56,206 nucleotides of DNA from a virus (Duplodnaviria > Caudoviricetes): IMG/VR virus record IMGVR_UViG_3300030107_003883, positions 1-56,206 of that record; one strand, written 5' to 3'. Under the pieces are notes generated by a model that was not told the origin of the DNA, did no database searches, and saw nothing but the letters and a program-made list of their open reading frames with translations. Both the position numbers and the translations under genes were made by a program. This document shows positions 20,086 to 45,576 of this stretch, in pieces. How positions within the stretch are numbered: position 1 is the first letter of the stretch; the number at the start of each line of letters is the position of its first letter.

Positions 20086-23000
20086 ATGAGTGATAATATA
20101 AGAAAGCAAGCAGAATATTGGGGGCAACAACAGTCGCCTGACTTAAACTTTTTAAAGCAAAAATATAAAGATATGCAACCCTGGCAAGTTAAAGCTAGGG
20201 ATCCTCAAGCTTATAAAGCATTATATGAACAAGCAGCACCTGGTCCAACAGGTATAGCGGACTCTAATCCTGTAACAGATTTCCTTGGAAATATGGCATG
20301 GGCTGTAGGTGAAGAGATGACATTAGGAGCTTCACTAGGTATTGATTTATATGCAGGCGGAGAAGTAAGGGAAACATTAGGCGTTCAAGAATGGGCTGAT
20401 AACTCATGGGCTGGTAGACTTGGTCAAATAGCTGGTCAAGGTGTAGGTTTTATATCTGGTGTAGGACTTATAGGAAAAGGACTAGGAAAAGCTAGTGGTG
20501 CATTAAACTTAGGTCGTAAAGCATTATCTAAAGGAGCTGGTAAAAAGCTTAGATCTGAAACTGGAGAGACTTTAAATAAGATAGTAGGCGATGTAGATGA
20601 TGCAGTAATGAGAGACTTTTCTGAAGAACTATATCAGACAGGTGCAGTTGCTATTAAAACAGGTCAAGAAGCTGCTAAAGCTTTTGGAAGAACTGCCACC
20701 AAGGTAGATCCTTTCAGCAACTTTGACTTACAAGGGGAAATTAGTAAAAACTTTGATGAACTATTACTAGAAAATATTAAGAAGAATAAAAACCTTGGGG
20801 ATAATGTACGTCAGAATCTCTTAGATCCAGCAAATAAGGAGCTTAGAGACGAGATTAGAGATAATAGTATAAAAGCTGCACAAGAATTTAGATCTGAAGA
20901 TGTGCCACGTGTTTTGGCTGCTAAATGGAGTGGTGTTCTAGGTGATCACGGAGCTCAGGTTGCTGGAGATATGGCTTACGAAGCTACTCTTCTTGGTTTA
21001 CATGGTGGATTAAGGAACTTAGTTGAAAGGGGAGTGTCTGCAGGACTAGATATAGATGATGAAAACTATGGAAGAAGGTCTTTCTTTAGTGACGTAATGC
21101 ATGGTATGATAGTTGGTGGAATGTTAGCACCTACTAGATATATACCTGGAGGAGCTAGAGTAGAGGTAGACTTAAGTAAGGGCCTTGGAGGTGTTAGGTC
21201 TGGTGTATTAGCTAATGTAAAGCAAATGGGACAGTCTGTTATACGTAAATACAATGGCAAAAAAGCTACAGATTATACCCCTAAACAGCTACAAACTATG
21301 ATGCGTAATGTTTGGTATGGTTCTAATAAAAACACAGAGTTTTTCAGAGGTATAGAGGGCTGGACTCCTAGACTAGTAGAAGATGTAGGTATGTTAGCTA
21401 ATGCTACTAATGTTAAAGTATTGCAAAATGTATATAATAAAGTCTCTAGAGATCTATCTAAAAACCTTATACCTATGTTAAGAAGAGAAGTTGCTAGAGA
21501 TTTATTTGAATCTGCTCCTAGATATGTAGTAGGCTCAGCTGTTATGAATGCTCAGAACTGGTATCAGAACTATGATCATATCACTGCAGATCAGTTTATA
21601 ACAGATGCTGTAGTTGGTATGTTTTATATGAAAAGAGGTAAAGTATTAAGTGGAAAGCCACCACTTCCTAAGTTTTTAACTTCCAGTGATATTAAAGGTA
21701 ATGAAATAGCTAAAATGTCACAAGCATTTGATGTATTAGGCTATGATAAGACTCAGCTTGATTTTATGGGTAGTGCTTGGGATAAAGTATATGCAGATCA
21801 TATGTTAGGAGAAAGCATTATTCAGCGTGGTAAGGATACTATGCCTGATATACGTAATGCTAATGCTATACTTGAAAAAGATATGGTTCCTGCTACTGAC
21901 TATGTTCAGATGCTTAAAGATCCTACTTTAAAAAACTTTAACGAACAAATATCCTTAGAGTATACACAAAGATTATCAATGGCTAGTGATCTTAGGGCCC
22001 AAGGAAGAGAAGCTGAAGCTAGAAGAATGGAACTTAGTGCTAATGATTTATTAGCTAAGTCAGATATAGCTCAAATGCTAGTTAATGATCTTAACTTTGG
22101 AATGGTTGACAAGAATGTACAACCTATGACTAAAGATGCTGCTATAGAATTTATAAATAGAATGAGCAGTATAGAGCTTAATGGTAAAAAGTTAACTATA
22201 GATAATGTATCTGCTGAAATACAAAAGCTTCGTAAAGCTGCTGCATATAAGACTACATCTCAAATACAGTTAGCTATGGAAGACTATATTAAAAACTCTT
22301 TAGACGCTTTTGGCTTATGGGATGTATCAATGGAAAGTGCTGGAACTATAAACATCCACCCTAGCACTAAAGACTTGTTATTAAAGAAGTTAGCTAGTAA
22401 TGAAAAGCTTGGAGAATACTCTACAGCTATCATGGCATTACATGATGTATTAGAAATGGCTAGCAGAACAGGCGTTATAAGATTTACTGATACTGCTATG
22501 GCTTGGAAAGCAGAAGGTGGACAAAAGCTAACAGCAGAAAAGTTAAATAGAATAGCTGATGAGTATAAAATCAATACAGAAAGAATGCATGATCTTGTTA
22601 TGGGTACAGAAAATAGTGGATGGAGAGACCTTGTAACAAATAAAAGAACTAGTGAAGCTTTTATGGATGATCATATACTAGCTTCTACACCTATATGGCA
22701 TGCAATAGATGCTAATATGAAGCACTTACGTAATGATATAGGGCTACATATACTAACAGGTAAAGGTGGACAAGGAACAGAGCAAACTATAGCCTTACAT
22801 CAAGAGATAATGAATGACTTATTTAAAGGTAAGCGTAAGATTATATTGTCTGAAGAAGCAGGAGAAAGAACTTTAACTGATAAGCCACATCTTATTAATG
22901 TGTTAAATAACCTTAACAGGTCATGGCAGCTAACAGAAGGTGTTGGTAAGAGAGGTGTAACAGAGATACGCTCTAGTCAGTTAGAGGCTATACATGAAAA

Positions 23001-26000
23001 GCTTTCAAGAGAAGTAGGTAATGTATTTAGTGACAACAATGCATTCCAGGCTTTTAAAAACTATTTAGATAATACATATATAGACAATATACTAGGTGGT
23101 AGCGCTTCATATGGTGCTAAGAAAGCATTATCAAGTCTTATACAGGAAGGAAATCCTTTAGCTTTCACTGATCCAGTCACTAATAAACGTGTTATAGCTT
23201 CTGGTGAGGCTATTAGAACAGCTATATTAGGTTCTGAATATGGTATTGAAATGCAAAGAATGAACCCTGAGTTTGCAAGTGAAGTAAGAACTATGGTTGA
23301 TAGGTATATAAAAGAGATTGAAAGACCTGTTAAAGGCAAAGGAGACTACTTAGAATTTAGTGATAAGATTACAATAGATCAAACATCTCAGCATAACCCT
23401 AAAGACTGGATGCAATCCTTACTATCTATGGAAGCATTATTAGATGGTAGTAAAGTAGTTGATATATCTAGAGTTGTAAAGAATGTACATCTACTAGAGT
23501 CTATGAACAGTTCTTTTAATACAGCTGCACACTTTGAAAAACTAGCTCAAGTTGCAGATAATAAAATTACAGTAGAACAGCTCAGGGCTGCAATGGATGG
23601 GCTTAGAACTAATACTAGACAGTTATCTTATTTAGTTACTGATGCTATGCAGAATGGTGATTTCTTAATGATACGTCAATTAGTAGATGCTCAATATGAT
23701 ATACAGAGAGCTATAGATAGAGCTAAACAGTTTACTGCAGAGGGTAAAGGTAGTATAGAAGAAGTTAGCTCTACTATATATAAAGTAACTATGGAAGCTA
23801 TAAATGAGCGTAATAGAAAGCTTTCTTTAGATAGTGTAGAATCTGTAGATGAGTTTATTAGACGTCAAGAAGAGGTAGTCACACGTCAAGACAGGTCAGG
23901 TAAGCCTGTATTAGAGAGTCAAACTATATCTGAGAGTCAGTATAAAAGTAAGTATGGTATAGATCAGACATCTTTAGACCTTATTAAAGGGGATATGGTT
24001 GCATTTAGCAACACTGCACATGACCTGGCAGCAGAGGTTAGCAGTTTTATGAACAATTTCCCTGGCGTCAAGCAAAGACCTGATGCTATGAGAACTGTAT
24101 TAGAAAATTTAGAAAACTTAGGCATACCTGCTGATGCCTATATGTCTCAAATAGTAAAGCCATGGATAGAAACTCAATGGACTAAAGCAAAAGCCTTAGA
24201 TGATAAGCTTAATCGTGATACATTCTTGACTGATACTGCTCAACTACTAGTTAGTGCTTGGGCTCAAAAGAAAGTCACTCTAGGGAACTTTGAGAACGGA
24301 GCATTAAGACTATCAACCAAGTCAGTTACTAACTGGGATGCAGGATTCTTAGGCCTTATTAACTCTTTAGGCATACAGAATAAGCCTAACTCATTTATGA
24401 TAATGGGAGAGCAGTCAATAGCTGGTAATCGTACTGTTAATAAACTTAGCGAAACAATGATGCAAGAGATTAATGCTAAGTTGGCAGCGGGAGCTAATAT
24501 AAAAGTAGAAAGATCAGAGCTATTCTCTGCTAATGAACGTGCTGAATTGGAAAAAATGCTAAAAGATATGCCTATAGTTGGTGAAGGTGCTGATGGCAGG
24601 GCTCAATTCCAAGCATTCAGGCTAGATGAAAAGCAAGCTATTATATTATCTACTAGTACATATCCAGATATAGTTAATAGATGGCGTTCTAAAGGCGAAG
24701 GTTCATTGTTTAACGAGCTTTCTAAAGTTGTTGGAGAGACAGCAGCTAAGAACTATTTAGAGAAGTCTTTAAAGTTAAATGAGTTTAAGAATGATCAGAT
24801 AGATACTCAGAAGTTTACTACTGAAACTATAGAAGGTTTACTTTTAACTACAAGACTATTAAAAGATAATGCATTTTACTTAGATAAGCTGGTTAAAGGT
24901 GAAATGACTAGAGAAGAAGTGTTTAAAGCATTAAAGTACTTAAAGCTATCTAACCCAAGAGGTGGTATTACTTTAAATAAAAAGACTGTAGATATAATGA
25001 GGTACTTTACTAAAGAAATAATGCCTGATACACCTCAGTATAAAGATATAAAAAGACATTTTGAAGGGCAAATGAGTAGACCTCACAGGCAAGTTACATT
25101 GTTTGATGAAAAGGGCCCTAATGAGAACTTCTTTAATAGTGATGCAGAGTATAGAGCAAAGGTTAGAGATCAGTATGTAAATGAAAGAGGCTTTAGTGTA
25201 GAAGAAGCTACTAAGATAGCTAATGAGTTGGCAGATAAACTTGCACCTGAAGCTAAGTCTAAAGTAGATGGTGAACAATATTTAAGTTTACCAGAAATGA
25301 CAGCATTATTAACCTCTAGAGGGGCTGATGCCAGTTGGTTTGTATTTGATGCTAATAATAATGTAGTTGGCTTTAACACTATTATTAAGCCTGTTGTATC
25401 TCAAAGTAAGGTTAATCCTGATGGCTCTATGTCTGTAGTTATAAACAAGACAGCTTTCAAGTATGATCCTACTATGGATGCAGCTATGAAGAATGCTGAT
25501 GGTACATATTTTACAGATAGTATAGCATTTAAATCTGCTAGTAAAGTAAACCAAAGTAAAGCGTCTGCAGAAAGTCCTTGGGTTGAAAATGCAATACCTG
25601 TACAGACACCTACAGATGTCACTAAACCATGGAAGCCTCAAGTTGCATTAGATATTCAAAACCAGAATACAGCTGGAAGTAATATGAGAATAGCAAGTGT
25701 AGACAGGGCTAATATGATGCTTAAGTCTATTAGTGGTCCTCATGATGGCACATTAAGTATGGCTTTTGGTAACTTCTTATCTAATCCAGCACAAGATGTA
25801 ATGAACTCTTGGTTAAAATCTACTAATGCAGTTAAAGATTTAAGTCAGCACATGCAAGACCTATATCAGAATCCATTTGCTTTTAAAGCTATAGCTGAAA
25901 AGCTTAAAGGATTTGATAAAGAGACTGGAGATATAACAGCTAGTCTTACAGGTTTAGAGGCAGTATTATCCGAAGGTGGTATACCTATATATGAACACTT

Positions 26001-29000
26001 GAGACCTCAAATAGAGAGAGCATTAGTTGGTAACTATTTAGGCTCTAGAAACTTTGCATCAGGCAATATAGAAAATGGTGCATATAATGTTATGACTGCA
26101 GCAGACGGACTTAGTCTTCCAGTAAGAGAGAATGGCATGCAATCAAGATTTGGTGGTAGCGGTATACCTCATGCAGAGTCTAATAAAAATATTAGAACAA
26201 TGTTAAGAGATCCAGGTGGTACTGAAAGCGTATCTCTTATATTTAGAATAACAGAGTCTCAAGCTAATGCATTAAATAAGGCTTTTAAAGCTAAGTCTGA
26301 GGTTAAAACAGATATATTTAAAGCAGGTGATGAACTTATAGCATCTGGCGATGGTTCAGTATCAGGTACATTTGATGGCATGTTAAATAGAATCTATGGC
26401 TCTAACCTTGAAGGCTCTTACGGTCCAGGACGTAGAAATGCTATAATGGATAGACAAATATCATCTGAGATTGTTCAAGACCTTATAGGTAAGAACTATA
26501 AAGACATTATACAGGAAGCATTTGAGTTAAAGCATTCAGATGGAGCTGATAAAATACAGACTTTAGGTGAACTTGTAAGGTTTGTAGATGGTAAGCCTCT
26601 TAGCGCTGTTGAACGTCAAAATGAAAAGACATACTTTGAAGACTATACTATCACTGATGGAACAGGTTCAATGGCACAAAAACATGGCTATCAATCTGTT
26701 CGTGTTGCTGATGTAAACTTAAGAACTCCTAAGGATGGTATTAATAGTTGGGTTATAACTGGTATAGAAAAGCTTATAGACAGGCGTAAAGGTGCCGTAA
26801 GCGAAATGAACAGTCAAGACCTTATTAATCCTCAGGATGCTGACTTTGATTTAGATAAATCAGCAAGCTTCTTTGGAACACCAGGGCCTATCTTAAAAGA
26901 AATACATGCTGCATCAGGATACCATGAGATATCGTCAGAAAGAATATGGGATAAAGCATTAACTGAAGTTAGTTATGAAATGCCACAGATGAGCTCATAT
27001 ATAAATGAGTTAAAGAACTTAGAGTCTGCTAGGCCAGTAGTTGTTAGACAGCATTCTTTAACATCTTTAATGTATCAGTACTTTACATCTTTAGATGGAC
27101 TAGCTCAAAAGAATCTTATTAGACCTGGCTATGAAACAGGTATACATAGAGATAAATATGGCGTAGACAGAGTATCTCAAAGTACCCCAGGTACTAACGT
27201 TGTAATAGATTTTCAAGCTCCAAGTAATAGAACTAAATATCAGATAGCATTTAGACATGGTGGAGAGTTTGTTGACGCTATAGGGCATATGAAGAAAGTT
27301 ATTAAGCATACTATAGATACTTACGGTGATCTTACTAAGCTTAACGATAGAAATATGATGGAAGAGTTTTGGTTCAATGATAACTTTGGACTGTTTAAAG
27401 TTGTAGAAACAGAAGGCTTTAATGCTGGTAGAGAAGTTGGCTGGAACAATTCAGTTGCTGAGATAGCACAGTTTAAAAAACAGATTAAAGATGGGTTCTT
27501 GAATCCTATGAACAAGATCTTTAATCTAGGCCTAGGCGTTGAAACATTAAGTGATGGTACAAGTAGAAAGCTTGGCTTTTATGACTATGTATCTACCTTT
27601 GAAAGAGCTAGGTCAGACATGTCACGTACTGCTGAGTTTAATAAAGAGTTAAAACCTTTTATTGATAACTTTTTAGGGTTCTTAGGTGAGCGTCCAGGCG
27701 CTGCAGGTACTAGTAATCATCCTTTAGTTGATGGTCTTATTAAAATGACTGAAGCTCATAATAAAAACTTTCCTATGCGTATAGAGCGTGGCAATGAGCT
27801 AGGCAATATGCTTAACGGAGCTGCAGTAGATGTTAAGAGTGTTGAAGTTCAAAATGCTATCAATAAGTATATGCAGAACGAAAAGAATTGGGTTCGCTTT
27901 AGCTCATTACAATGGGAAGTAAATCAGCTAGAGAATACATTAAATGACATGCGTGCACGTAGGCAGGACAAGACTAGGCAGTATGAAAATATGGAAAAGC
28001 GTAAGCAAATGTTAACTGAAACATTAGGCCAGGTAGAAGTAATAGCTAATGATAAATTTGTTAGAGAGTCTACTCCAAGAAGAAGGTCAGGTCAAATGGC
28101 AGAAGCTGATGCTAACTATGCAGTATATAAAGTAAGAAATGGTGATGTTAAAAGCGTAACAAGAATTAGTAAAGGAGATAGGTTCTTTTGGAATGCTGGT
28201 GATGTTGTTGTAAAGAATCCTAGAACATTTAGATTCACTGATCCTATACAGCAAAAGCATTTACGCACAATGCATAGAGCCTTTGGTAATTTACTAACAG
28301 GAGTTGAAAAGTTTGATGTTGCAGACAGCAGAGGATATGTCAGGAGTAAGATAAATGATATTAAGCAAGAGTTTTATAATATAGACACACAGTTCTCTGA
28401 TGCATCTGTTAGAAACAACAGTATGTATAAAGATATATATAGCACAAAATTAGAAGCTCTAAAAACTTCGTTTAACGACATAATGATAGCAAGGGGACCT
28501 CAGTATGCTAAGCAGTTTTTACATACGTTATTGACCCCAAGAGTGTCCAATTCTGAGATGTCTATACTAGGTTATGATAATAAGAATGAGTCTTATTACT
28601 CAGGCTTTAGATTTCAGAGTAATAAATCTAGTGAACAGATGGTTATGAGGTTCATGACCGCGGCTATGGATGGTAAAGTATCAGGATTTAATAAAGCTTT
28701 AGCAAAAGAATGGTTTGCAGAAATAGAACAAGCTCGTAAAATAGCCTACCTGATGACACATGATAAATCATTAAGTGGTGATGCATTTAAGATAGGAAAT
28801 CTAGACAGAGGTCTTAATCCTAGCTTTGATGTGTTACCTAGAACAGATGCTAAGCCTAAGTTATTAGATGTCAAGGCTAATAATGAACAGGCTCGTAAAA
28901 CTATACAATCATATCTTACAGGGTCATACTTTTTAGATCCTATAGAACTGTATAGATTAACAGTAGGTCTAGATAAGACAATGAATGAAATGCCTAGCCC

Positions 29001-29205
29001 TCAGTTGATGGGTGATCGTGTTAAAAATCTATGGACTGATGTAGGTAAGAACTCAAATACTATAGAAGTTAAAGAAGATCTAGGTAGGGCAGTATATAGA
29101 ATGTCTAAAGTACCTATTGAGAATAGTATGAATGGCAACAGAGAACATATAAGACGTAAAACATTTTCAGAGAAGCTCTGGGAAGAGATGAACTGTAATA
29201 ATTAA
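20086..29205 (+). CDS. Giant virion protein with two-barrel (double-psi beta-barrel) RNA polymerase domain; putative virion RNAP
   Basis: DADFDLD at aa 2251-2257 (26836-26856) preceded by R2213-T-P; upstream VDGEQYLS (D1728), K1768-P, K1788 and DSIAFKSASKV (K1820), in the order seen in crAss-like virion RNAPs and QDE-1-type polymerases. Confidence 0.8.
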   Translation: MSDNIRKQAEYWGQQQSPDLNFLKQKYKDMQPWQVKARDPQAYKALYEQAAPGPTGIADSNPVTDFLGNMAWAVGEEMTLGASLGIDLYAGGEVRETLGVQEWADNSWAGRLGQIAGQGVGFISGVGLIGKGLGKASGALNLGRKALSKGAGKKLRSETGETLNKIVGDVDDAVMRDFSEELYQTGAVAIKTGQEAAKAFGRTATKVDPFSNFDLQGEISKNFDELLLENIKKNKNLGDNVRQNLLDPANKELRDEIRDNSIKAAQEFRSEDVPRVLAAKWSGVLGDHGAQVAGDMAYEATLLGLHGGLRNLVERGVSAGLDIDDENYGRRSFFSDVMHGMIVGGMLAPTRYIPGGARVEVDLSKGLGGVRSGVLANVKQMGQSVIRKYNGKKATDYTPKQLQTMMRNVWYGSNKNTEFFRGIEGWTPRLVEDVGMLANATNVKVLQNVYNKVSRDLSKNLIPMLRREVARDLFESAPRYVVGSAVMNAQNWYQNYDHITADQFITDAVVGMFYMKRGKVLSGKPPLPKFLTSSDIKGNEIAKMSQAFDVLGYDKTQLDFMGSAWDKVYADHMLGESIIQRGKDTMPDIRNANAILEKDMVPATDYVQMLKDPTLKNFNEQISLEYTQRLSMASDLRAQGREAEARRMELSANDLLAKSDIAQMLVNDLNFGMVDKNVQPMTKDAAIEFINRMSSIELNGKKLTIDNVSAEIQKLRKAAAYKTTSQIQLAMEDYIKNSLDAFGLWDVSMESAGTINIHPSTKDLLLKKLASNEKLGEYSTAIMALHDVLEMASRTGVIRFTDTAMAWKAEGGQKLTAEKLNRIADEYKINTERMHDLVMGTENSGWRDLVTNKRTSEAFMDDHILASTPIWHAIDANMKHLRNDIGLHILTGKGGQGTEQTIALHQEIMNDLFKGKRKIILSEEAGERTLTDKPHLINVLNNLNRSWQLTEGVGKRGVTEIRSSQLEAIHEKLSREVGNVFSDNNAFQAFKNYLDNTYIDNILGGSASYGAKKALSSLIQEGNPLAFTDPVTNKRVIASGEAIRTAILGSEYGIEMQRMNPEFASEVRTMVDRYIKEIERPVKGKGDYLEFSDKITIDQTSQHNPKDWMQSLLSMEALLDGSKVVDISRVVKNVHLLESMNSSFNTAAHFEKLAQVADNKITVEQLRAAMDGLRTNTRQLSYLVTDAMQNGDFLMIRQLVDAQYDIQRAIDRAKQFTAEGKGSIEEVSSTIYKVTMEAINERNRKLSLDSVESVDEFIRRQEEVVTRQDRSGKPVLESQTISESQYKSKYGIDQTSLDLIKGDMVAFSNTAHDLAAEVSSFMNNFPGVKQRPDAMRTVLENLENLGIPADAYMSQIVKPWIETQWTKAKALDDKLNRDTFLTDTAQLLVSAWAQKKVTLGNFENGALRLSTKSVTNWDAGFLGLINSLGIQNKPNSFMIMGEQSIAGNRTVNKLSETMMQEINAKLAAGANIKVERSELFSANERAELEKMLKDMPIVGEGADGRAQFQAFRLDEKQAIILSTSTYPDIVNRWRSKGEGSLFNELSKVVGETAAKNYLEKSLKLNEFKNDQIDTQKFTTETIEGLLLTTRLLKDNAFYLDKLVKGEMTREEVFKALKYLKLSNPRGGITLNKKTVDIMRYFTKEIMPDTPQYKDIKRHFEGQMSRPHRQVTLFDEKGPNENFFNSDAEYRAKVRDQYVNERGFSVEEATKIANELADKLAPEAKSKVDGEQYLSLPEMTALLTSRGADASWFVFDANNNVVGFNTIIKPVVSQSKVNPDGSMSVVINKTAFKYDPTMDAAMKNADGTYFTDSIAFKSASKVNQSKASAESPWVENAIPVQTPTDVTKPWKPQVALDIQNQNTAGSNMRIASVDRANMMLKSISGPHDGTLSMAFGNFLSNPAQDVMNSWLKSTNAVKDLSQHMQDLYQNPFAFKAIAEKLKGFDKETGDITASLTGLEAVLSEGGIPIYEHLRPQIERALVGNYLGSRNFASGNIENGAYNVMTAADGLSLPVRENGMQSRFGGSGIPHAESNKNIRTMLRDPGGTESVSLIFRITESQANALNKAFKAKSEVKTDIFKAGDELIASGDGSVSGTFDGMLNRIYGSNLEGSYGPGRRNAIMDRQISSEIVQDLIGKNYKDIIQEAFELKHSDGADKIQTLGELVRFVDGKPLSAVERQNEKTYFEDYTITDGTGSMAQKHGYQSVRVADVNLRTPKDGINSWVITGIEKLIDRRKGAVSEMNSQDLINPQDADFDLDKSASFFGTPGPILKEIHAASGYHEISSERIWDKALTEVSYEMPQMSSYINELKNLESARPVVVRQHSLTSLMYQYFTSLDGLAQKNLIRPGYETGIHRDKYGVDRVSQSTPGTNVVIDFQAPSNRTKYQIAFRHGGEFVDAIGHMKKVIKHTIDTYGDLTKLNDRNMMEEFWFNDNFGLFKVVETEGFNAGREVGWNNSVAEIAQFKKQIKDGFLNPMNKIFNLGLGVETLSDGTSRKLGFYDYVSTFERARSDMSRTAEFNKELKPFIDNFLGFLGERPGAAGTSNHPLVDGLIKMTEAHNKNFPMRIERGNELGNMLNGAAVDVKSVEVQNAINKYMQNEKNWVRFSSLQWEVNQLENTLNDMRARRQDKTRQYENMEKRKQMLTETLGQVEVIANDKFVRESTPRRRSGQMAEADANYAVYKVRNGDVKSVTRISKGDRFFWNAGDVVVKNPRTFRFTDPIQQKHLRTMHRAFGNLLTGVEKFDVADSRGYVRSKINDIKQEFYNIDTQFSDASVRNNSMYKDIYSTKLEALKTSFNDIMIARGPQYAKQFLHTLLTPRVSNSEMSILGYDNKNESYYSGFRFQSNKSSEQMVMRFMTAAMDGKVSGFNKALAKEWFAEIEQARKIAYLMTHDKSLSGDAFKIGNLDRGLNPSFDVLPRTDAKPKLLDVKANNEQARKTIQSYLTGSYFLDPIELYRLTVGLDKTMNEMPSPQLMGDRVKNLWTDVGKNSNTIEVKEDLGRAVYRMSKVPIENSMNGNREHIRRKTFSEKLWEEMNCNN

Positions 29206-29213
29206 GGAGAAGT

Positions 29214-32066
29214 ATGGCTTGTATTAAAGATCCGTATAAAGAAGATCTCATGAAGGTAGCTACTGCCTTTGAGAGAGATGCAAAGATAAAAGCATTTGGT
29301 TATGGAGACCCTTCAACTGGTGAGTGGCTATGGAATAAGTATGTAGGTGCTCCCAGAGATGCTACTAGACCTGTTACTCAAGTAGAACTTAACAAGTTTA
29401 AGTTAGGTATAGAAGAGTTTAAGAATAATCTAGGCAAGAAAGAGAATCCATTCTTTAAATGGTTTAAACTACCTAAAGCATTAATGCGTAAACTGCCTGA
29501 AACTTCTATGTTTGTAGAAGAGATGTCTAATGCTACTTCATTTAGACAGCGTAACCTTAAAGAAAGCTCTGTAGAGCTAGATAACATGTTCAATGGGCTG
29601 TACGATATGATACTTAAAGGTGATTACTATGGTGGTACACCGTGGTCTAAGTCTGAGCTTAAAAAGTATCAAAACTTAGAAAGAGATTTAGAAATAGCTA
29701 AGACTCCTACTGAGAGAATGGAAGCATTAAAAAGAATAACTGAAGTTGTTGGTGTTAAAGATGGCACTAACAATCCTGTAGGTGGTAAGCTTTTAAGAAG
29801 ATACAATGACCTCCTTACATTTAAAGAGCTACCTAAAACTAGAACTGAAGAGAGAATAGTAGAGAATTGGAATAAGCTTAGAGCTCGTTCAGCTAAAGCA
29901 TTACTTAATGGCATAGAGCAGTCTAAAGCTATTATAAAAACAGTTAATGATGTTGGTATGCGTAATGATCTTATAAAGTCTTTAGAACTGCTGCAATCTG
30001 CTGCAGAACGTATACATTTTCAACAGTCAACAGATGCTCAAACATATAGTGGTGCAATAGACAAGAAGACTGGTAGATTTAAGCTTGAAAACATGGATAT
30101 TAATATGAATGTATATGATGCTGAGACTGGTATGACTAAGCCATATAAAATGATCAATGAAAAAGGTGAGCGTGTTGTACCTAAAGAGCTTACTAAATAT
30201 GCTCCAGAATATGTTATAGAAATGTCAAATGTTGTAAGGAATATAACAGACTATGCTTCAAAGCCTAACGATACTAAATGGGCTAATAAAACATCAGAAC
30301 AAATAAGACTAGAGATAGAGAACAAGGTTGACCTTGGCAACATGATCAATAGACTTAAAGCACGTACTGATGTAGAGACAGGTAAGTTTTCTTCTTTAGA
30401 TCCTATATTCTATCTTAATAAGTATGTTAATGATGTAGCTCACTTTAACTATGTTACACGTGTTAATCTAGCTTACAAAAAAGCAGCTGATAAGATGTGG
30501 GATGTCACTAGAAGAAAAAATATTGGTACTGAACTAGGTGATTATGCTAGACAGATGGGTGACATGTTATCAGAGATAAGAGACTCTGCCTTAAATAACT
30601 ATGAAGGTGGTATCTCTCAAATGGATAGCATTGTTCGTTTTGTTAATGGTATGGAATATGTATCTAAGTTAGGTTGGAGTATACGTGGTGGTATACGTAA
30701 TAGATCTCAGATATTATTTGACTGGACTAGGTATGGTCATAAAGCCTGGACTAATGCATCTAAGTTCTATAATGTAAGAGAGCATGACCTTATGGCTACT
30801 AATCAGTTAAATAGATTTGGTATATTATTTGGTGAAAAAGCTCAAGCTAGTGCTGCTATTGCTACTGCAGGATCTATAGAAGCTGTTACTCCTGCTGGCA
30901 CAATGATGACTAGCGAAGGTGGGTTAAGAAGAAAACAAACTACTGTTGCAGAGAAAGCTGCATCTGGTATGGCTAAAGTAGCTGAGAAATCATCTTTACC
31001 TCTACAAATGGCAGAAAATGCTAACCGTACTGGTACATTTAAAAGATCATTTGCTTTAAACTTTAATGAAATGAACCGTAACAGAGCTTACTTTAAGCGT
31101 AAGTGGATGGAGTCTAAGAAGACTACTAAACCACCTGCAGAAGATGTATTAACTAAATACATAGAGAATCTAGCAGGTAATGCAGCGGCTAAAACAACAA
31201 GAGATCTTCACTTTGAGTATGATAACTGGGCTAAAGCTAAAGCATTACAAACTAAAACTGGCAAGGTAGTAGGACAGTTCCAGACATATAGATTTGCACT
31301 CTGGGATCTACAATTCCAAATGTTAAAAGATGCAAAACGTGCAGCAGGTGCTGGAAAGTATGGCTTGTTTGAAACTGATGCCAAAGGCAATGTTACTAGA
31401 ATAATGCCTGAAATACAGCAAGCAATGCGTTATCTATCTCTTTATTCTTTAGCTGTTCCACTTATATCTGCTGTAAGTAACCTAGATATGAGCAGTTTAA
31501 TACAGAATGAAACATATGATACTGCAGCCAGGTTCTTCGAATACTATACTGCTGATGAAGACAGCCCTGATGCATTAGAAGACAAGTATGGTCAGTTTTT
31601 TGGCAAGTCAGCATTAGCTGGTAACCTAGGTCCTTTCGTGTCAGATATACTTACTCTTACAGATCTATTTGACATATACGATTCAACCCCTGAAGAATTG
31701 CAAGAAACTATGAAGATGAAGTATGATCCCAAAGATCCAGACTGGTGGTATAAGTTTGCTAGAGTATTTAACATTCAGAGTTCTCGTACTGCATGGCATA
31801 CTATACCTGCACTACTTCAAGATCAATACGAACGTGCATTTAGAGTTGAAACAGGATTATATAAACCTAAACATATTTATGATTGGATGCGTAAGTCTGA
31901 TGATGCATTCTATAAACAGAGAAAAGATTGGCTCAAGAAGAGCCCGTACTCCCCCATGAACTGGGCTTATACAGGCACAGTTCTACCTAAAGTAAAGAAG
32001 AAAAAGAAGCGCAAAAATGCTGAAGCAGTGAACGTACTAGAAGGAATGCTAGCTGGTAGATATTAG
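29214..32066 (+). CDS. Large internal virion/ejection protein
   Basis: AAGGAG RBS; 950 aa, helical and basic; last gene of the late block. Confidence 0.55.
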   Translation: MACIKDPYKEDLMKVATAFERDAKIKAFGYGDPSTGEWLWNKYVGAPRDATRPVTQVELNKFKLGIEEFKNNLGKKENPFFKWFKLPKALMRKLPETSMFVEEMSNATSFRQRNLKESSVELDNMFNGLYDMILKGDYYGGTPWSKSELKKYQNLERDLEIAKTPTERMEALKRITEVVGVKDGTNNPVGGKLLRRYNDLLTFKELPKTRTEERIVENWNKLRARSAKALLNGIEQSKAIIKTVNDVGMRNDLIKSLELLQSAAERIHFQQSTDAQTYSGAIDKKTGRFKLENMDINMNVYDAETGMTKPYKMINEKGERVVPKELTKYAPEYVIEMSNVVRNITDYASKPNDTKWANKTSEQIRLEIENKVDLGNMINRLKARTDVETGKFSSLDPIFYLNKYVNDVAHFNYVTRVNLAYKKAADKMWDVTRRKNIGTELGDYARQMGDMLSEIRDSALNNYEGGISQMDSIVRFVNGMEYVSKLGWSIRGGIRNRSQILFDWTRYGHKAWTNASKFYNVREHDLMATNQLNRFGILFGEKAQASAAIATAGSIEAVTPAGTMMTSEGGLRRKQTTVAEKAASGMAKVAEKSSLPLQMAENANRTGTFKRSFALNFNEMNRNRAYFKRKWMESKKTTKPPAEDVLTKYIENLAGNAAAKTTRDLHFEYDNWAKAKALQTKTGKVVGQFQTYRFALWDLQFQMLKDAKRAAGAGKYGLFETDAKGNVTRIMPEIQQAMRYLSLYSLAVPLISAVSNLDMSSLIQNETYDTAARFFEYYTADEDSPDALEDKYGQFFGKSALAGNLGPFVSDILTLTDLFDIYDSTPEELQETMKMKYDPKDPDWWYKFARVFNIQSSRTAWHTIPALLQDQYERAFRVETGLYKPKHIYDWMRKSDDAFYKQRKDWLKKSPYSPMNWAYTGTVLPKVKKKKKRKNAEAVNVLEGMLAGRY

Positions 32067-32275: not shown

Positions 32276-32478
32276 TAATTATACTCTGTATAATCAAAGC
32301 TAGTCTTATCATGAGAACTAAAAGTTTTCTTTATATCATCTTCTAAAACTGTTAAATTAGCTTTAGTCAGTGAAAATGCTTGATTTACATTCTTTATTTT
32401 TATACTATTAACCATTTCTAGAATGCTTTTAGCATATTGTACAAATGCAACTTTTAGTTTTTCTTCCTTATTACTCAC
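32275..32478 (-). CDS. Hypothetical protein
   Basis: AGGAGAG RBS; coupled to neighbours. Confidence 0.6.
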   Translation of the reverse strand: MSNKEEKLKVAFVQYAKSILEMVNSIKIKNVNQAFSLTKANLTVLEDDIKKTFSSHDKTSFDYTEYN

Positions 32479-32839
32479 TTTCTCTCCTTTCGTTTTCGTA
32501 TTCTAACATATCACAAAATGTAGTAAATGGCAGTGCCACATATGGCTGTTTACCATTCTTTTTAAAGACTATAGCTGGTGAACTCCCATCTGGATTATTA
32601 TCCTCACACTGTTCTATTGCTCTCCATATTTGTAGTCTTTCTACATTTTTGCATTCAAAGCTAAAGGTACAAACTTTCTTTGCTGCAGGCGATCTAACTA
32701 TATCTTCACCTGTCATTCCCATAGTTTGTGATTTAATGTCATCAGGTTCTAATTGAGTGTAAACTTCCCTCAACATATCACGAACATAGTTTTGTAGTCT
32801 TCTACCTTTTGCTTTACTTGCTTTTGCGCTTCTTGCCAA
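32471..32839 (-). CDS. Holliday junction resolvase-like PD-(D/E)xK nuclease
   Basis: KAKGRRLQ...GEDIV...FECKN; AAGGAG RBS + TTG. Confidence 0.85.
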   Translation of the reverse strand: MARSAKASKAKGRRLQNYVRDMLREVYTQLEPDDIKSQTMGMTGEDIVRSPAAKKVCTFSFECKNVERLQIWRAIEQCEDNNPDGSSPAIVFKKNGKQPYVALPFTTFCDMLEYENERRESE

Positions 32840-32972
32840 ATCCAGTCTCCTTTCTTAATCTCTCTAATGCTTTAGATATTTTATGCAAAGGAGTTTTCTC
32901 TTCTGGTATTATTTGCCCACACTCCGTGCAGGTTTTTAAAACGGGGCCTCAAGCTCTTCCACTTCCAGACAT
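32814..32972 (-). CDS. Candidate selenoprotein, 52 aa with UGA at codon 8 (MSGSGRA-U-GPVLKTCTECGQ...)
   Basis: AAGGAGG RBS at 32983-32989, ATG at 32972, in-frame TGA at 32951-32949, then 44 open codons with CxxC; SECIS-like hairpin 16 nt after the UGA. Confidence 0.6.
32916..32932 (-). promoter_or_regulatory. SECIS-like hairpin
   Basis: CCUGCAC-GGA-GUGUGGG; loop begins 23 nt after the UGA and starts with G. Confidence 0.55.
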
Positions 32973-33124
32973 AAGACTAATACCTCCTTTCCATATTGTA
33001 CTTTTCTAAAGATCTCGCCATCGTATATTTCACCTTTAATGTCAACAGTACCTTTAAACATAGGTTCGTTATCCATATCTTTATCATATGCCGAGTTCTT
33101 CAGGAAGTCTGACTGTAGTTTCAT
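32936..33124 (-). CDS. Small OB-fold/SSB-like protein
   Basis: NEPMFKGTVDIKG motif; acidic tail ending EAPF. Confidence 0.5.
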   Translation of the reverse strand: MKLQSDFLKNSAYDKDMDNEPMFKGTVDIKGEIYDGEIFRKVQYGKEVLVLCLEVEELEAPF

Positions 33125-33317
33125 TTATTTGCTCCCACTTTCTTAGGCTTTTTGACCCCACCTCTTTTCTTGCGCACTTTGCACATATCAGAGCCATTCT
33201 TATTCCCAGGAGATAAGATGCGTCCCCTATCCATAAATAAGCCGCCTTCTGGGCGTGAGATTGAGTCCCACATTGAGCGCATACTTTTATTATCTTCTTT
33301 CCTAGATGAACTACCAT
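33084..33317 (-). CDS. Zinc-finger protein
   Basis: CAQC...CAKC; GAGG RBS; overlaps the tail of the upstream gene. Confidence 0.55.
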   Translation of the reverse strand: MVVHLGKKIIKVCAQCGTQSHAQKAAYLWIGDASYLLGIRMALICAKCARKEVGSKSLRKWEQINETTVRLPEELGI

Positions 33318-33618
33318 TTTCTTCCTCTATCATACCCCATAAGAGCATTAAATATACTATACAGTCCGTAATTCGACCAGTTACGTCCTCTCTTTGTGAT
33401 TTATGGCCTTTTACATAAGCAGCAATACCATCTACATGCTTAAGTGTATATGTCATAAGTACTTTCTTCTTGTCTATTTCAAGCAAATTTGCCACTCTAT
33501 TAAAGTTAGCAAATACATCTTGATCATCATGAGCATATTCTTTTTGACCTTCATCTCTTATAGATATAACATTTTCTAGTATTGTATCCATAAGTTTATG
33601 CATTTCTTTATGAGTCAT
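33121..33618 (-). CDS. All-alpha nucleotide pyrophosphohydrolase-like protein (Nmad1/DUF1599-like)
   Basis: GQKEYAH...FANF...KHVD...EDVTGRITDCIVYLMLL. Confidence 0.6.
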   Translation of the reverse strand: MTHKEMHKLMDTILENVISIRDEGQKEYAHDDQDVFANFNRVANLLEIDKKKVLMTYTLKHVDGIAAYVKGHKSQREDVTGRITDCIVYLMLLWGMIEEENGSSSRKEDNKSMRSMWDSISRPEGGLFMDRGRILSPGNKNGSDMCKVRKKRGGVKKPKKVGANK

Positions 33619-35353
33619 CTCTAATAATCCTTACGTTATCTAGTTTAAGTCTTACTTGCAAGTGTTCTCTTTCTCTATTAGCATCAGATCTTAGATCTAA
33701 GTACTCTAGTTCTCCAGTCGTCATAGAACGTCTAGGAACAAGAGAAAGTAACTTATTCAAGTTGTACGCTACTCTAAATGAGCCTTTAGTAGAATGTAAA
33801 CCCATACCTTCAGTCATTGCAGTCTTATTTATTTCACTTACCGCAAATACTATGATATTATGCTTAACAGCTAGCTCCATCATTGCCTGTGATGCCTCTT
33901 CTACGCGCATATTAGGGTCTTTAAGGTTACTTTGAAACAAACCCATGTGATCTATCACAACAACTCTAGGCTTAACAGGAAGAGTCAATATAGTCTTTTC
34001 TAAATCTCTTGCAGATATAGGTGAATAATTCACTTGTAACCATTGAAACTTCTTATCTTGACCATTGTTATGATTTGCATAATGATCTCTTAACTGTTCT
34101 TCAGTCCAGCCATTTTCTATTTGTACAAATCTAGACCATATTTGTCTTGGAGACATCTCCATTTCTAAGAAATATGTTGGCACTTTAAATGCACACATCC
34201 AGTTTTGCAATAACATAGTCTTCATAGACTTAGGTGGTGCTTGTAAAACAACAACTTCACCTGGATATATAGGATAGTCACCTCCATATAACTGCCCTAA
34301 ATTTAAGGGAGTTACATCAGATTTGTAAAATTCTATAAGGTTAGTTTCCATGTCTGAAGCATCCATCATAGTCTGGCTTTTCTTATTTCTATACAGTCTA
34401 CATGTATTCTTGCAATATTCGTCCATAATAGGGTCACTACAGCCATATTTATTGCCTTGACCACCATGACCTTCATATGCACTAGTAACGATGCTATCCA
34501 TCTCTTTTTCAGAGAAAGGTTTATCATTGCCACTTACCTGTACTCTCCATACTTCCATAAGCATTCTTACTGTTTCTTCAGGATAAAGCCAACGAAACCA
34601 AGCACTTAGCCTTAATGCTACCATATGTCTTTTACCCATAGGTATAGACTGTATCATACTGCTAATACAAGGATACAAAGAAGGATCAGGAGATCTTCCT
34701 TGTGATAATTGTATGCTTTGAGTCTGTTTCTTTTCCTCTTCGCTTATAATTACATTAAATACAGGTTGTCCCTCCATAACTATATCACTCATAGGTTGAG
34801 GTTTCTTTGCATACTCTATAATAGCATTAACATCTCCTTCCAACATACCTTTTTGTAGCTCAACTTTATATGAGCCTGATTTATTATTTTTGGTATTTGG
34901 AACTCTTATTAATCTAAGCTTGTCTGTTACTGATGGATCAGCATATTCAAATATACCATGCTTTGTAAGTACAGTTTTTATCTTTGTATGCAGGTTCTTA
35001 TGTGGTCTATATGTAAATGAAGTACTAGGTATGTGAAAGTGGAATCCTGTTCCGCTAAAGAATGCTTTATATGGCACATCTAAGTCTTCAAGCATTAATT
35101 TTAGGCCAATAGCTTTCTTTTGTGCGTCATCAGGATTACCACCATCAACATCTAATATAAACTCTTCAGGTATATATATTTTACCATCATAACCAGACAA
35201 TTTCTTGTTTTCAGCAAAGTAGTCCTTAACATCATTATCGTATTCATATAATGACATAAAGGTGTCACTATGAAGATCCATCCAATTTACTATATTAGAT
35301 GAATCTTCAAAGTAATGTCTTCTTGATAAGCCGAACGCAAATTCTCTAATCAT
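33608..35353 (-). CDS. Primase-polymerase (AEP-type)/helicase fusion
   Basis: FILDVD, FSGTGFHFH and RLIRVPNT primase motifs; PCI...GKRH PriCT-like region; C-terminal RecA-like APPKSMKT, LEMEMS and VVVIDH. Confidence 0.8.
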   Translation of the reverse strand: MIREFAFGLSRRHYFEDSSNIVNWMDLHSDTFMSLYEYDNDVKDYFAENKKLSGYDGKIYIPEEFILDVDGGNPDDAQKKAIGLKLMLEDLDVPYKAFFSGTGFHFHIPSTSFTYRPHKNLHTKIKTVLTKHGIFEYADPSVTDKLRLIRVPNTKNNKSGSYKVELQKGMLEGDVNAIIEYAKKPQPMSDIVMEGQPVFNVIISEEEKKQTQSIQLSQGRSPDPSLYPCISSMIQSIPMGKRHMVALRLSAWFRWLYPEETVRMLMEVWRVQVSGNDKPFSEKEMDSIVTSAYEGHGGQGNKYGCSDPIMDEYCKNTCRLYRNKKSQTMMDASDMETNLIEFYKSDVTPLNLGQLYGGDYPIYPGEVVVLQAPPKSMKTMLLQNWMCAFKVPTYFLEMEMSPRQIWSRFVQIENGWTEEQLRDHYANHNNGQDKKFQWLQVNYSPISARDLEKTILTLPVKPRVVVIDHMGLFQSNLKDPNMRVEEASQAMMELAVKHNIIVFAVSEINKTAMTEGMGLHSTKGSFRVAYNLNKLLSLVPRRSMTTGELEYLDLRSDANREREHLQVRLKLDNVRIIRDDS

Positions 35354-35484
35354 TTGTTGTTACCTACCTCTCCTCTGGCTATTACTGTAGTTTTACATCT
35401 TTTACAGGTTTTTTGATGATTATGCATTCCCCAGAGTTTACCGCATTTACATCTTATGTGTTTTTCAAGCTCTTTATCCACCAT
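35350..35484 (-). CDS. Small zinc-ribbon protein (44 aa; not in ORF track)
   Basis: IRCKCGKLW...CKRCK; AAGGAG RBS; ATGA overlap with the primase gene. Confidence 0.65.
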   Translation of the reverse strand: MVDKELEKHIRCKCGKLWGMHNHQKTCKRCKTTVIARGEVGNNK

Positions 35485-37822: not shown

Positions 37823-38476
37823 TCATATCTTTCTTAGCATCATAGTAGGAAAATGAAAGCTAAAGTTACTATTAAACGGTTCATCGGTTATGAACTTGCG
37901 AACGGAATTAGCAATAAAGCTTCCACTCATATTTGAGCAGTAACTTGTTGCTTTAGCGTTGCAAGGCTCCTCATCCCCTTGTTCATCAGAGTACCAATGT
38001 TTTTTATATTCAGCAAGTGTTGGCTTTTTGAATATATATTGTTGATAGTGTTCAGCTCCCATTCTCCCGTCTATGATGCATTTTGGCTTAGTCGTAGGGT
38101 TAGAGCATATTGTAGTGACCGCTTCCAACCTTGACCCCATCGAATCAAACCCTAGTATGACTATGTCATTATGATCCTGGAAATAGAATGTATCAAAGTC
38201 ACCATGATGAGTATCTATTACAAGTTCTCGACTTATATTTAATAAATGGCTCTTCAAAGCATTAACTTTGTTACTGCCAATATCTCCTTGAGTATACTGA
38301 GATACTCCGATATTAACATCTTCTACTATATCACGATCATATAGATGAAAATATAGTCCACCCATACGTGCCAATTGAGTGGCTGCGGCACTCCCGATAG
38401 CACCGCAACCTAGTATATGAAATGTGTAGTCATATACCCCTGTGAATAATCCTTCATTTCTTGCTGTTAAGCTCAT
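37823..38476 (-). CDS. E1/ThiF-family ubiquitin-like activating enzyme (start likely 38476)
   Basis: ILGCGAIGS, YDRDIVEDVN, KVNAL, GFDS and DGRMG motifs; candidate catalytic Cys in EEPCNAKAT; ATGA overlap with the JAB gene. Confidence 0.92.
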   Translation of the reverse strand: MSLTARNEGLFTGVYDYTFHILGCGAIGSAAATQLARMGGLYFHLYDRDIVEDVNIGVSQYTQGDIGSNKVNALKSHLLNISRELVIDTHHGDFDTFYFQDHNDIVILGFDSMGSRLEAVTTICSNPTTKPKCIIDGRMGAEHYQQYIFKKPTLAEYKKHWYSDEQGDEEPCNAKATSYCSNMSGSFIANSVRKFITDEPFNSNFSFHFPTMMLRKI

Positions 38477-39384
38477 ACTCCATACCCCCATCCTATACCA
38501 GCTTGATCTAATGTGTCGCCTGTTTGCTTATTTACAACAAAGTCTGATGGCATAGCATGTAATAAAGATTCAAGAGCATTTTCTACTACAAGAGTTACTT
38601 CATATATACTTTTACTATCTACAAGCTCTTTATTTAAATCATCTATTGACATTTTATAAGCTGCATAAGTCATTGATCCTGCTACTACTTCAGATATAAC
38701 CTCGTCAACTTCTTCAAGGATTTCGAAATATGTCTTTGGCTTACCAGACAAGCCTGTCTGACCAGCTGTGGTATGAAAAGGGAGTCGCTCTTGGCGAGGG
38801 TCCTCCGCAGCTTCTTTAAGCAGATCAGTATGATTTCCATTATTCTTTCTCCATGAATAACCTGTATATGTAGGAACTTTATATTCAGGCTTAGTACACA
38901 TTGCTGCTACATTCTCTTTAATCTTTTTGCTTATACGTGCTTTAGGATTAATTATAGTTAGATCAACATCTTCATGTACTTCTACAGGCTTCCATACAGA
39001 TACTCTAAACTTATATTCTTCCTTAAGGTTAACAACTAAGGCAAATGAGAAATCTCCTTGATCATATTCTTTTATAGCTGTTAAATCTGTGCCAGACCAG
39101 AATGCGTTCATTGTATGATGACTATGCCACCAACAAAATCTAAAGTTCTTTTTACCCAATCTTTTAGCCTCTTTAGTATAATATATAGCTAGCTCATCTT
39201 TATCAAGTACAGTATTCCCAGCGCTTATAACTTGCTTAAGTATTACAGGGTTTTCTAAATGCCAATCACCATCTTTATCTTCTACCATTACAGACATTCC
39301 ACCTATTTCAGATTGATGCTCTGTATGGGCTTCTTCTGCGTATCCCAGGATAGTATCCCAGTCTTTCTGTTTTATGTAAAACAT
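38473..39384 (-). CDS. JAB/JAMM (MPN+) metalloisopeptidase
   Basis: Complete JAMM motif E26...H87-x-H89-x7-S97-x2-D100. Confidence 0.9.
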   Translation of the reverse strand: MFYIKQKDWDTILGYAEEAHTEHQSEIGGMSVMVEDKDGDWHLENPVILKQVISAGNTVLDKDELAIYYTKEAKRLGKKNFRFCWWHSHHTMNAFWSGTDLTAIKEYDQGDFSFALVVNLKEEYKFRVSVWKPVEVHEDVDLTIINPKARISKKIKENVAAMCTKPEYKVPTYTGYSWRKNNGNHTDLLKEAAEDPRQERLPFHTTAGQTGLSGKPKTYFEILEEVDEVISEVVAGSMTYAAYKMSIDDLNKELVDSKSIYEVTLVVENALESLLHAMPSDFVVNKQTGDTLDQAGIGWGYGV

Positions 39385-43889: not shown

Positions 43890-43902
43890 ATGTTAATTGT
43901 TG

Positions 43903-43975
43903 AGGCGGTGACAGGAGTCGAACCTGCTATCTCTTGGTTATGAGCCAAGCGTGTAAACCATTTCACTCCACCGCT
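43903..43975 (-). tRNA. tRNA-Met (anticodon CAT); initiator, elongator or Ile2 identity unresolved
   Basis: AGCGGTG..CACCGCC acceptor with A1:C72 mismatch; CTTGG-CTCATAA-CCAAG anticodon arm; GCAGG-TTCGACT-CCTGT T arm; CCA not encoded. Confidence 0.85.
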
Positions 43976-45259: not shown

Positions 45260-45421
45260 GTGGAGAAAGAAAAGGATGAATCTCGTAGTGGAGGTCTTGG
45301 GGACACTCTTGCGAGAGTTATTCATAGTACTACTGGCATTAAGCCTTGTGATAATTGTACTAGGCGTAAAGAAAAATTAAATAAATGGTTCCCATATACT
45401 AAAAGGAGTGTTGACACATGA
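45260..45421 (+). CDS. Small conserved-type phage protein (GLGDT...CxxC..RKEKLN..FPY; 53 aa; not in ORF track)
   Basis: AAGGA RBS + GTG; ATGA overlap with the next ORF. Confidence 0.65.
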   Translation: MEKEKDESRSGGLGDTLARVIHSTTGIKPCDNCTRRKEKLNKWFPYTKRSVDT

Positions 45422-45576
45422 ACGGGAAAGATCAAGCTGTCCATATATGACCATATTCGGGTAAACCTCATCCGGTGGATGAGAAACATAGCATTCGAGG
45501 TGCTGATATACATGGAGAAGAAACAAATTCGGTTGAATATCGGTATCCAAAAACGGTATACAAAGAAGGGAAGTAA
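45418..45576 (+). CDS. Candidate selenoprotein, 52 aa with UGA at codon 11 (MNGKDQAVHI-U-PYSGKPHPV...)
   Basis: AAAAGGAG RBS; ATGA overlap upstream and TAATG overlap downstream; in-frame TGA at 45448-45450; SECIS-like hairpin. Confidence 0.6.
45467..45483 (+). promoter_or_regulatory. SECIS-like hairpin
   Basis: CUCAUCC-GGU-GGAUGAG; loop begins 23 nt after the UGA. Confidence 0.6.

Follow-up and report, generated by a model that had tools for sequence, protein, structure and literature searches.

An optional in-frame UGA in a small CxxC gene of marine tailed phages: a candidate site of facultative selenocysteine insertion

Known systems of UGA recoding

The prototype of the bacterial SelB/SECIS-dependent selenoprotein genes is fdhF of E. 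coli. UGA is the leakiest of the stop codons, and the phage Qbeta uses UGA readthrough to extend its coat protein into the A1 protein. In the available text of a 2026 review of prokaryotic selenoproteomes (PMC13188914), the bSECIS constraints are described as a loop of 3–9 nt, a stem of 4–16 bp, a G in the first two loop positions, a distance of 16–37 nt from the UGA and an energy of −7.5 kcal/mol or lower; the words “phage” and “virus” are absent from that text. In full-text literature searches, no paper was found on a bacteriophage that encodes a selenoprotein of the bacterial type.

The small phage gene described here is like the bacterial SelB/SECIS genes in having an in-frame UGA within a translated ORF and a hairpin inside the coding sequence. 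As far as the bSECIS model is set out in the available text of PMC13188914, the loop size, the G in the first two loop positions and the spacing of 19–23 nt are in range, with the energy at the limit. The gene differs in being carried by a phage, in a UGA that aligns with Arg, Gln or Lys as opposed to Cys and occurs in 22% of the family, in the two to three G-U pairs of its stem, and in the absence of a U after the GG. Its likeness to Qbeta would lie in a phage gene with a UGA that is passed at low frequency to give a longer product. However, Qbeta readthrough extends a complete, abundant protein, whereas the small gene stops at codon 8, so that any useful product requires recoding, and its UGA is accompanied by a specific hairpin.

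Organization of the locus

The window, i.e., the whole stretch of DNA that was analysed, is a complete contig of 56,206 bases with 36% G+C. Domain and profile searches identified a set of tailed-phage genes within it, including an SU10-type capsid and adaptor, a P22-type portal, a small terminase and a primase-helicase. The features of the small gene and its neighbours are as follows.

32814..32972, minus strand: small gene, 52 codons plus stop, MSGSGRA-UGA-GPVLKTCTECGQ...KSK, with the single invariant CxxC of the family
32983..32989, minus strand: AAGGAGG ribosome-binding site, with a 10-nt spacer to the ATG, within the GKEV codons of orf62
32970..32972, minus strand: start codon ATG (in relatives, ATG in 34 of 41 and GTG in 7 of 41)
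32949..32951, minus strand: in-frame TGA, codon 8, the putative recoded stop, after the seven codons MSGSGRA
32916..32932, minus strand: hairpin CCTGCAC-GGA-GTGTGGG over the T-C-T-E-C-G codons, its GG beginning 23 nt past the TGA
32936..33124, minus strand: orf62, the upstream gene, whose last 12 codons overlap the first 12 of the small gene; the small-gene frame is that of orf62 minus 1
32471..32839, minus strand: PD-(D/E)xK endonuclease / Holliday-junction resolvase gene, with a TTG start and its own AAGGAG box, overlapping the last 8 codons of the small gene

A sequence-only reading of this DNA had proposed the layout of ribosome-binding site, MSGSGRA, TGA and downstream frame, and this is found on the minus strand at 32989–32814. 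The TGA is followed by 44 sense codons and a TAA at 32816–32814. The same reading held that these 44 codons have no start of their own ahead of the CxxC; indeed, no in-frame ATG, GTG or TTG lies between the TGA and the CxxC in the window, the earliest in-frame TTG being located 3′ of the CxxC. The hairpin that it described, beginning 16 nt 3′ of the TGA with a 7-bp stem and a GGA loop, is likewise present at 32932–32916, and two of its seven pairs are G-U.

The AAGGAGG box is conserved among nine aligned sequences. The resolvase gene was assigned through PF24608 (E 2.7e-6) and phrog_244 (E 3.1e-20, with the match starting from profile position 1). Standard pipelines mis-annotate this region and leave a gap of 96 nt between orf62 and the resolvase gene. 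On the comparisons given below, 32972–32814 on the minus strand is a real phage gene that is predicted to encode a small CxxC (zinc-knuckle-like) protein.

No significant family was found for the small protein in Pfam, PHROGs or PDB profiles. The profile search returned weak matches to zinc-ribbon knuckles, 3wwl (LysW) at E 0.011 and 8q5b at E 0.79. As a short protein with a CxxCG knuckle, it is like the small CxxC / CPxCG zinc-knuckle proteins; unlike them, it has one invariant CxxC only.

Several other parts of the window were noted. The 165-aa ORF at 33618–33121 (minus strand) has a phrog_6802 match that is confined to residues 1–112, and its tail overlaps a 77-aa ORF with two CxxC pairs (33317–33084) by 197 nt, within the region 33084–33618 of the minus strand. 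Both frames stay open in near relatives, and the arrangement could reflect either two overlapping genes or the product of a frameshift. In the replication block, at 37826–39384 on the minus strand, a ThiF-family (E1-like) protein and a prokaryotic JAB-domain protein are encoded side by side, a pairing known in ubiquitin-like conjugation systems. On the plus strand, ORFs of 3039 aa (20086–29205) and 950 aa (29214–32066) have no Pfam match at E 1e-4 and presumably encode giant virion or ejection proteins.

Distribution of the gene and of its UGA

Relatives were fetched from viral and metagenome contigs with primase and resolvase queries, which yielded 220 loci (80 of 323 confirmed relatives were kept). 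Together with the window, these gave 67 loci with orf62 and the resolvase gene in order, and 44 distinct regions. The small gene is present in 41 of the 44, all from related marine phages, and the three regions without it are the distant ones. In each of the 41 genes, which begin with ATG (34) or GTG (7), the frame continues as far as the resolvase overlap with no in-frame stop other than at codon 8. In the alignment of 38 of the 41 proteins, M1, L12, C15, C18 and G46 are invariant. The gene can be taken as real because it is kept in 41 distinct relatives and is unbroken outside codon 8; the earlier expectation that the ORF would be conserved in related phages is thereby borne out, and both the gene and its conservation are directly supported by these alignments.

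Further searches were also performed. A nucleotide search of 32400–35400 against a phage collection gave no match, and a protein search gave distant primases only. The orf62 query retrieved six loci in viral contigs, five of them on contigs already in the set and the sixth matching over 12 residues, with no new small gene. The family profile, run against 5.8 billion proteins, found 47 proteins; as nearly all belong to the weak-hairpin or long subtypes, the census of UGA was not enlarged.

The state of codon 8 among the 41 genes is as follows.

Codon 8: TGA 9, CGA 13, CAA 10, AGA 4, AAA 3, CCA 1, CAT 1
TGA carriers: the window (WIN), L221, L227, L247, L249, L266, L156 (same contig as L009), L275 and L274

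TGA is thus found in 9 of 41 genes, and TAA or TAG never occur at this position. In the 32 sense relatives the residue is Arg (17), Gln (10), Lys (3), Pro (1) or His (1). At codon 8, CGA and TGA stand in a ratio of 13:9, compared with 28:0 over the rest of these genes. The 66 CAA codons of the small genes (56 of them outside codon 8) have no TAA counterpart. The position-specific UGA is a direct reading of these genes, in which it is recurrent yet optional. On the flanking-gene tree the TGA state requires five changes and on the small-gene tree three, and the well-supported branches force two only. L275 and L274 share the gene type of L247 and L249, yet adjoin the window on the orf62-plus-resolvase tree. 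This disagreement between small-gene types and the flanking-gene tree suggests recombinational exchange of the small gene.

An assembly error can be discounted as the source of the TGA. It is also present in L221, a contig with 96% similarity, and contigs from the runs of three other studies (X2, X5 and X9) span 32949–32951 without a difference. Contigs of the RNA run X17 cover 32600–32861 and 33081–33200; the TGA lies outside both, so these are uninformative on expression of the small gene.

A Sec/Cys alignment of the homologues had been proposed as a check, and here the result went against the sequence-only reading. Cys was found at the aligned codon 8 in none of the 32 sense relatives, although 7 of the 32 have it one codon further on, at codon 9. 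This pattern brings in the possibility of a leaky stop, whereby a near-cognate tRNA (Trp, Arg or Cys) would read the UGA at a low rate, with or without help from the hairpin. Little full-length protein would be made and the identity of the residue would be immaterial. This explanation is considered less likely than selenocysteine insertion, of which it is the main rival. Given that Arg, Gln, Lys, Pro and His are all accepted at position 8, the choice of inserted residue would not matter, and the use of TGA to the exclusion of TAA and TAG fits as well, with Qbeta readthrough as the precedent. The W at position 8 of P0047, an ENA protein that belongs to the weak-hairpin subtype, also agrees with a leaky stop. 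P0047 is a protein record, and its W stems either from table-4 translation of a TGA or from a genuine TGG. If its DNA has TGA, it is a counter-example to the hairpin link described below; if TGG, Trp is tolerated at position 8. However, a leaky stop leaves the restriction to codon 8 unexplained, given that the 28 other CGA codons are never replaced by TGA.

Translation beyond the UGA

The ratio dN/dS was computed between carriers on the non-overlapping codons, from codon 13 to end-9. For four carriers of one gene type, it is 0.04 (L247–L275), 0.08 (L247–L249 and L249–L274) and 0.14 (L249–L275), at a synonymous divergence of 0.55–0.73. These low values 3′ of the TGA indicate that the frame is translated beyond the stop. 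The window’s own subtype is less constrained, with dN/dS of 0.41–0.43 (0.43 for WIN–L227). Indels between carriers are in frame, including those between WIN and L227. In run X9, both of the differences adjoining the TGA are synonymous in the small-gene frame and non-synonymous in orf62, the codons having been read by hand. The start codon and ribosome-binding site 5′ of the UGA are kept in 41 of 41 genes.

The small gene therefore shows what is expected of a selenoprotein gene in this respect, an in-frame UGA within an ORF translated on both sides, with the start and ribosome-binding site kept upstream and a low dN/dS downstream. Purifying selection 3′ of the UGA is directly supported by the comparison of carriers, and on this evidence ribosomes evidently pass the codon-8 UGA. 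It is very probable that the small gene is real and that its UGA is recoded. The persistence of the UGA over a synonymous divergence of 0.55–0.73, despite a one-step reversion to CGA, also argues against a simple leaky stop.

The same data bear on the possibility that the UGA marks a null allele. In that case the UGA would end a peptide of seven residues, and the downstream frame would be decaying or dispensable, its conservation being due to the end of orf62 and to the start and ribosome-binding site of the resolvase gene. Both ends of the small gene do overlap their neighbours, the dN/dS of the window’s own subtype is only 0.41–0.43, and with approximately 19 substitutions between WIN and L227 it is, by our own estimate, not improbable that the 44 codons stayed open by chance. 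Nevertheless, all 41 genes are free of further stops and of frameshifts, and the values of 0.04–0.14 were obtained in the non-overlapping part, in carriers of another subtype. The in-frame indels of WIN and L227 and the differences in run X9, which are silent for the small protein at the expense of orf62, also oppose it. A null allele is judged to be quite improbable.

In principle, ribosomes could enter the downstream frame by another route. They might shift by −1 at the end of orf62, or re-initiate on a non-canonical start beyond either the UGA or the orf62 stop. The arrangement would allow for this, as the small gene is read in the orf62 frame minus 1, the stop of orf62 comes 12 nt past the TGA and a CCCC run is present there in WIN. 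On the alignments, however, both the orf62 frameshift and downstream initiation were rejected. The carriers share no slippery site, with orf62 ending in CCG TTT TAA, CCA TTC TAA or TTA TTT TGA. They also have no common in-frame ATG, GTG, TTG, CTG or ATT between the UGA and the CxxC (an in-frame TTG is found there in L227 alone), and the conservation of the start codon and ribosome-binding site 5′ of the UGA speaks for initiation at that point. Such a route has the slightest chance of all and is hardly credible.

An alternative genetic code, in which TGA is a sense codon (tables 4 or 25), was rejected. In the window, TGA is an ordinary stop that terminates 12 of the 52 ORFs of at least 100 aa, and the long ORFs are intact under table 11. 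The phage code is for this reason not one with TGA as sense.

The hairpin and its association with the UGA

The hairpin spans the codons for (T/V)-C-x-x-C-G, and its GG starts 23 or 20 nt past the UGA in carriers. Six inner pairs with a GG apical loop are formed in 9 of 9 carriers compared with 2 of 32 sense relatives, the GG-loop criterion having been sharpened after the data were seen. The first Cys codon is TGC, which provides a C-G pair, in all nine carriers and in 17 of the 32 sense relatives. Where a Thr codon precedes it at −1, this codon can pair with the third base of the Gly codon; ACC and GGG are paired in 3 of 3 carriers, whereas the 10 sense relatives with ACT or ACA and GGA all have a C-A mismatch. 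These synonymous choices suit the stem and indicate that it has been strengthened in carriers. The link between the UGA and the hairpin is directly supported by these counts. Such a link is predicted by a SelB-type mechanism and not by plain leakiness, which gives no reason for the GG loop and tighter stem to be found in nine of nine carriers and two of 32 others.

The four inner pairs follow from the TGY...TGT-G coding and are present in nearly all relatives; carriers and sense relatives are set apart by the outer pairs and the loop. The combinations ACC/GGG and GTN/GGA are compensatory, and 84.9% of cells are paired compared with 78.2% in shuffles (0 of 500 reach this value), a figure that includes the inner four pairs forced by the Cys codons. 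The fold of the window hairpin has an MFE of −8.4 kcal/mol and z = +0.54, with 138 of 200 shuffles at least as stable. The carrier loops are GGA, GGC, AGGAA, AGGCA or AGGCG and lack the U that is constant at a second locus of the window, 45418–45576. Both the weakness of the hairpin and the absence from its loops of the GU that is constant at that locus (TGA at 45448) are in keeping with a leaky stop.

The bSECIS constraints, as given in the available text of PMC13188914, were applied through our own implementation. The window hairpin passes, as a borderline case, with −7.6 kcal/mol against the limit of −7.5. That limit is passed by 5 of the 9 carriers and by 2 of the 32 sense relatives; at −4 kcal/mol, the figures are 9 of 9 and 4 of 32. 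As background, 20 of the 2014 TGA triplets of the window pass by this implementation of the published constraints.

Searches with structural models added little. When the window was searched with a covariance model of the locus at 45418–45576, the small-gene site was not recovered at E values of up to 10, a weak test because the model carries the coding sequence of that locus. With Rfam, only tRNA was returned at gathering scores, and E-value scans of the two loci gave nothing relevant.

The sequence-only reading had pointed to the second locus, on the opposite strand, as one with the same spacing, stem length and GG loop but another stem sequence. This was found to be the case, with its hairpin at 45467–45483 on the plus strand. 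It had further argued that the match of the two loci is hard to attribute to chance. The exact pattern TGA-N16-7bp-GGN occurs at two sites in the genome of 56,206 bases, 32951 (minus strand) and 45448 (plus strand), out of seven 7-bp GGN hairpins overall. In 300 dinucleotide shuffles, the mean number of sites was 0.087 and 3 of 300 reached two, a figure that overstates the case since the pattern was defined from the two sites afterwards.

It may be asked, then, whether the resemblance of the two loci and the link of hairpin to UGA are a coincidence of chance and shared ancestry. Besides the post hoc pattern and the core forced by Cys codons, this is favoured by the number of independent UGA/hairpin contrasts, which is two to five and too small for significance in a sign test, even though all point in the same direction. 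That uniform direction, the rarity of two sites in shuffles and the synonymous-site choices that suit the stem stand against it. Coincidence is regarded as a very improbable account.

The companion locus at 45418–45576

The second locus, which was the first candidate of the sequence-only reading, is arranged as follows.

45418..45576, plus strand: companion locus, 52 codons, with TGA at 45448–45450 as codon 11
45467–45483, plus strand: companion hairpin CTCATCC-GGT-GGATGAG, 7-bp stem and GGU loop, 16 nt past the TGA

The companion ATG overlaps the orf53 stop as ATGA. The TGA is kept in 39 of 39 DNA loci, comprising the window and 38 related loci (21 and 17, the 17 being from two deeper branches). 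It lies within the invariant residues of H-x-U-P-x-S-G-x-x-H-x-V-x-x-x-H. The Ser codon just 3′ of the TGA alternates between TCN and AGY, a switching that shows the amino acid to be under selection there. RNAalifold independently recovers the hairpin, with 95.5% of cells paired and two pairs with compensatory change; its stability relative to shuffles is z = −0.62. In a distant branch, a stem of 4 bp that carries a GUA or GUU loop is found in the same place.

A profile of the companion protein, run against 1.84 billion proteins, gave 13 matches; among the 10 inspected, six have W at the UGA position. The protein records P0002 and P0003 also have W at this position. Since the DNA relatives of the W form have TGA, the W is most likely a product of table-4 gene calling. 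The ENA record P0015 has Cys at the UGA position; it is a protein record alone, and its 14 DNA relatives all have TGA.

The two genes are alike in being small phage ORFs with a UGA within the first 11 codons and no start 3′ of it that would cover the conserved residues. In the window, they also share the 16-nt spacing, 7-bp stem and GGN loop. The companion differs in its invariant UGA, invariant His/Pro/Ser flanks, constant loop GU and one Cys record, whereas the UGA of the small gene is optional. These sequence features make the companion locus a strong candidate for a genuine Sec gene, and a much stronger one than the small gene. As a likely true recoding site, it makes use of host Sec machinery plausible and raises the odds that the host decodes UGA as Sec.

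Decoding of the codon-8 UGA

Selenocysteine insertion would proceed through the following steps. Ribosomes would initiate on the ATG at 32972, downstream of the AAGGAGG box. At codon 8, the UGA would be decoded as selenocysteine by host SelB and Sec-tRNA instead of ending the protein. The hairpin of the (T/V)-C-x-x-C-G codons would recruit SelB and Sec-tRNA, with its apical GG 23 nt past the UGA, in a geometry like that at 45418–45576. Selenocysteine would be facultative at this position, the ancestral codon being CGA or CAA and the UGA arising by a single C-to-T change. The UGA seems to be retained only in genes whose CxxCG hairpin is already tight in its stem and has GG in its loop.

Facultative selenocysteine insertion at codon 8 is the leading reading, to which about an even chance of being correct is given; SelB, Sec and the Sec capacity of the host are elements that we infer. 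Put forward more tentatively, and at somewhat short of an even chance, is the emergence of a facultative phage selenoprotein. In this scenario, the CxxCG codons would by chance form a hairpin that SelB can use, and CGA would have changed in one step to UGA, at a suitable distance, three to five times on backgrounds with a GG loop and tight stem, replacing a dispensable Arg with Sec, in a marine phage lineage that would draw on the host Sec machinery for two proteins. Because no Sec/Cys pair was found, the small gene is not filed as a selenoprotein. It may nonetheless work like one.

The proposal of the sequence-only reading that the phage uses host Sec machinery can accordingly be kept in part. 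Passage of the UGA, the GG-loop hairpin that travels with it and the companion locus are in its favour. Against it are the lack of Cys homologues, the presence of UGA in 9 of 41 genes, a hairpin no stabler than shuffles, a core that is a by-product of the Cys codons and a loop without U.

That reading had also seen no selA, selB, selC or selD in the genome, and this holds: no tRNA-Sec was found in the window, and no SelA, SelB or SelD domain in the 55 ORFs scanned. The sole phage-encoded tRNA is a tRNA-Met with the anticodon CAT, at 43902–43975 on the minus strand. As for a host signal, a TerL search of genome contigs returned three MAG contigs (L301, L302 and L303), none with the companion gene. 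Their large terminases are 59–67% identical to that of the window, and the MAG labels disagree (Poseidoniales, Dehalococcoidia and Methanosarcinales). The three are probably mis-binned phage contigs and provide no consistent signal of a host.

Implications for phage biology

Should the UGA be read by a near-cognate tRNA instead of as selenocysteine, the locus would represent a position-specific, structure-linked readthrough signal in bacteria, which would likewise be unusual. If the UGA does encode selenocysteine, phages would exploit SelB, and genes of this kind would be systematically missed by gene callers. The small gene would, in addition, illustrate the origin of a new Sec codon on a SECIS-like fold that pre-exists for unrelated coding reasons.
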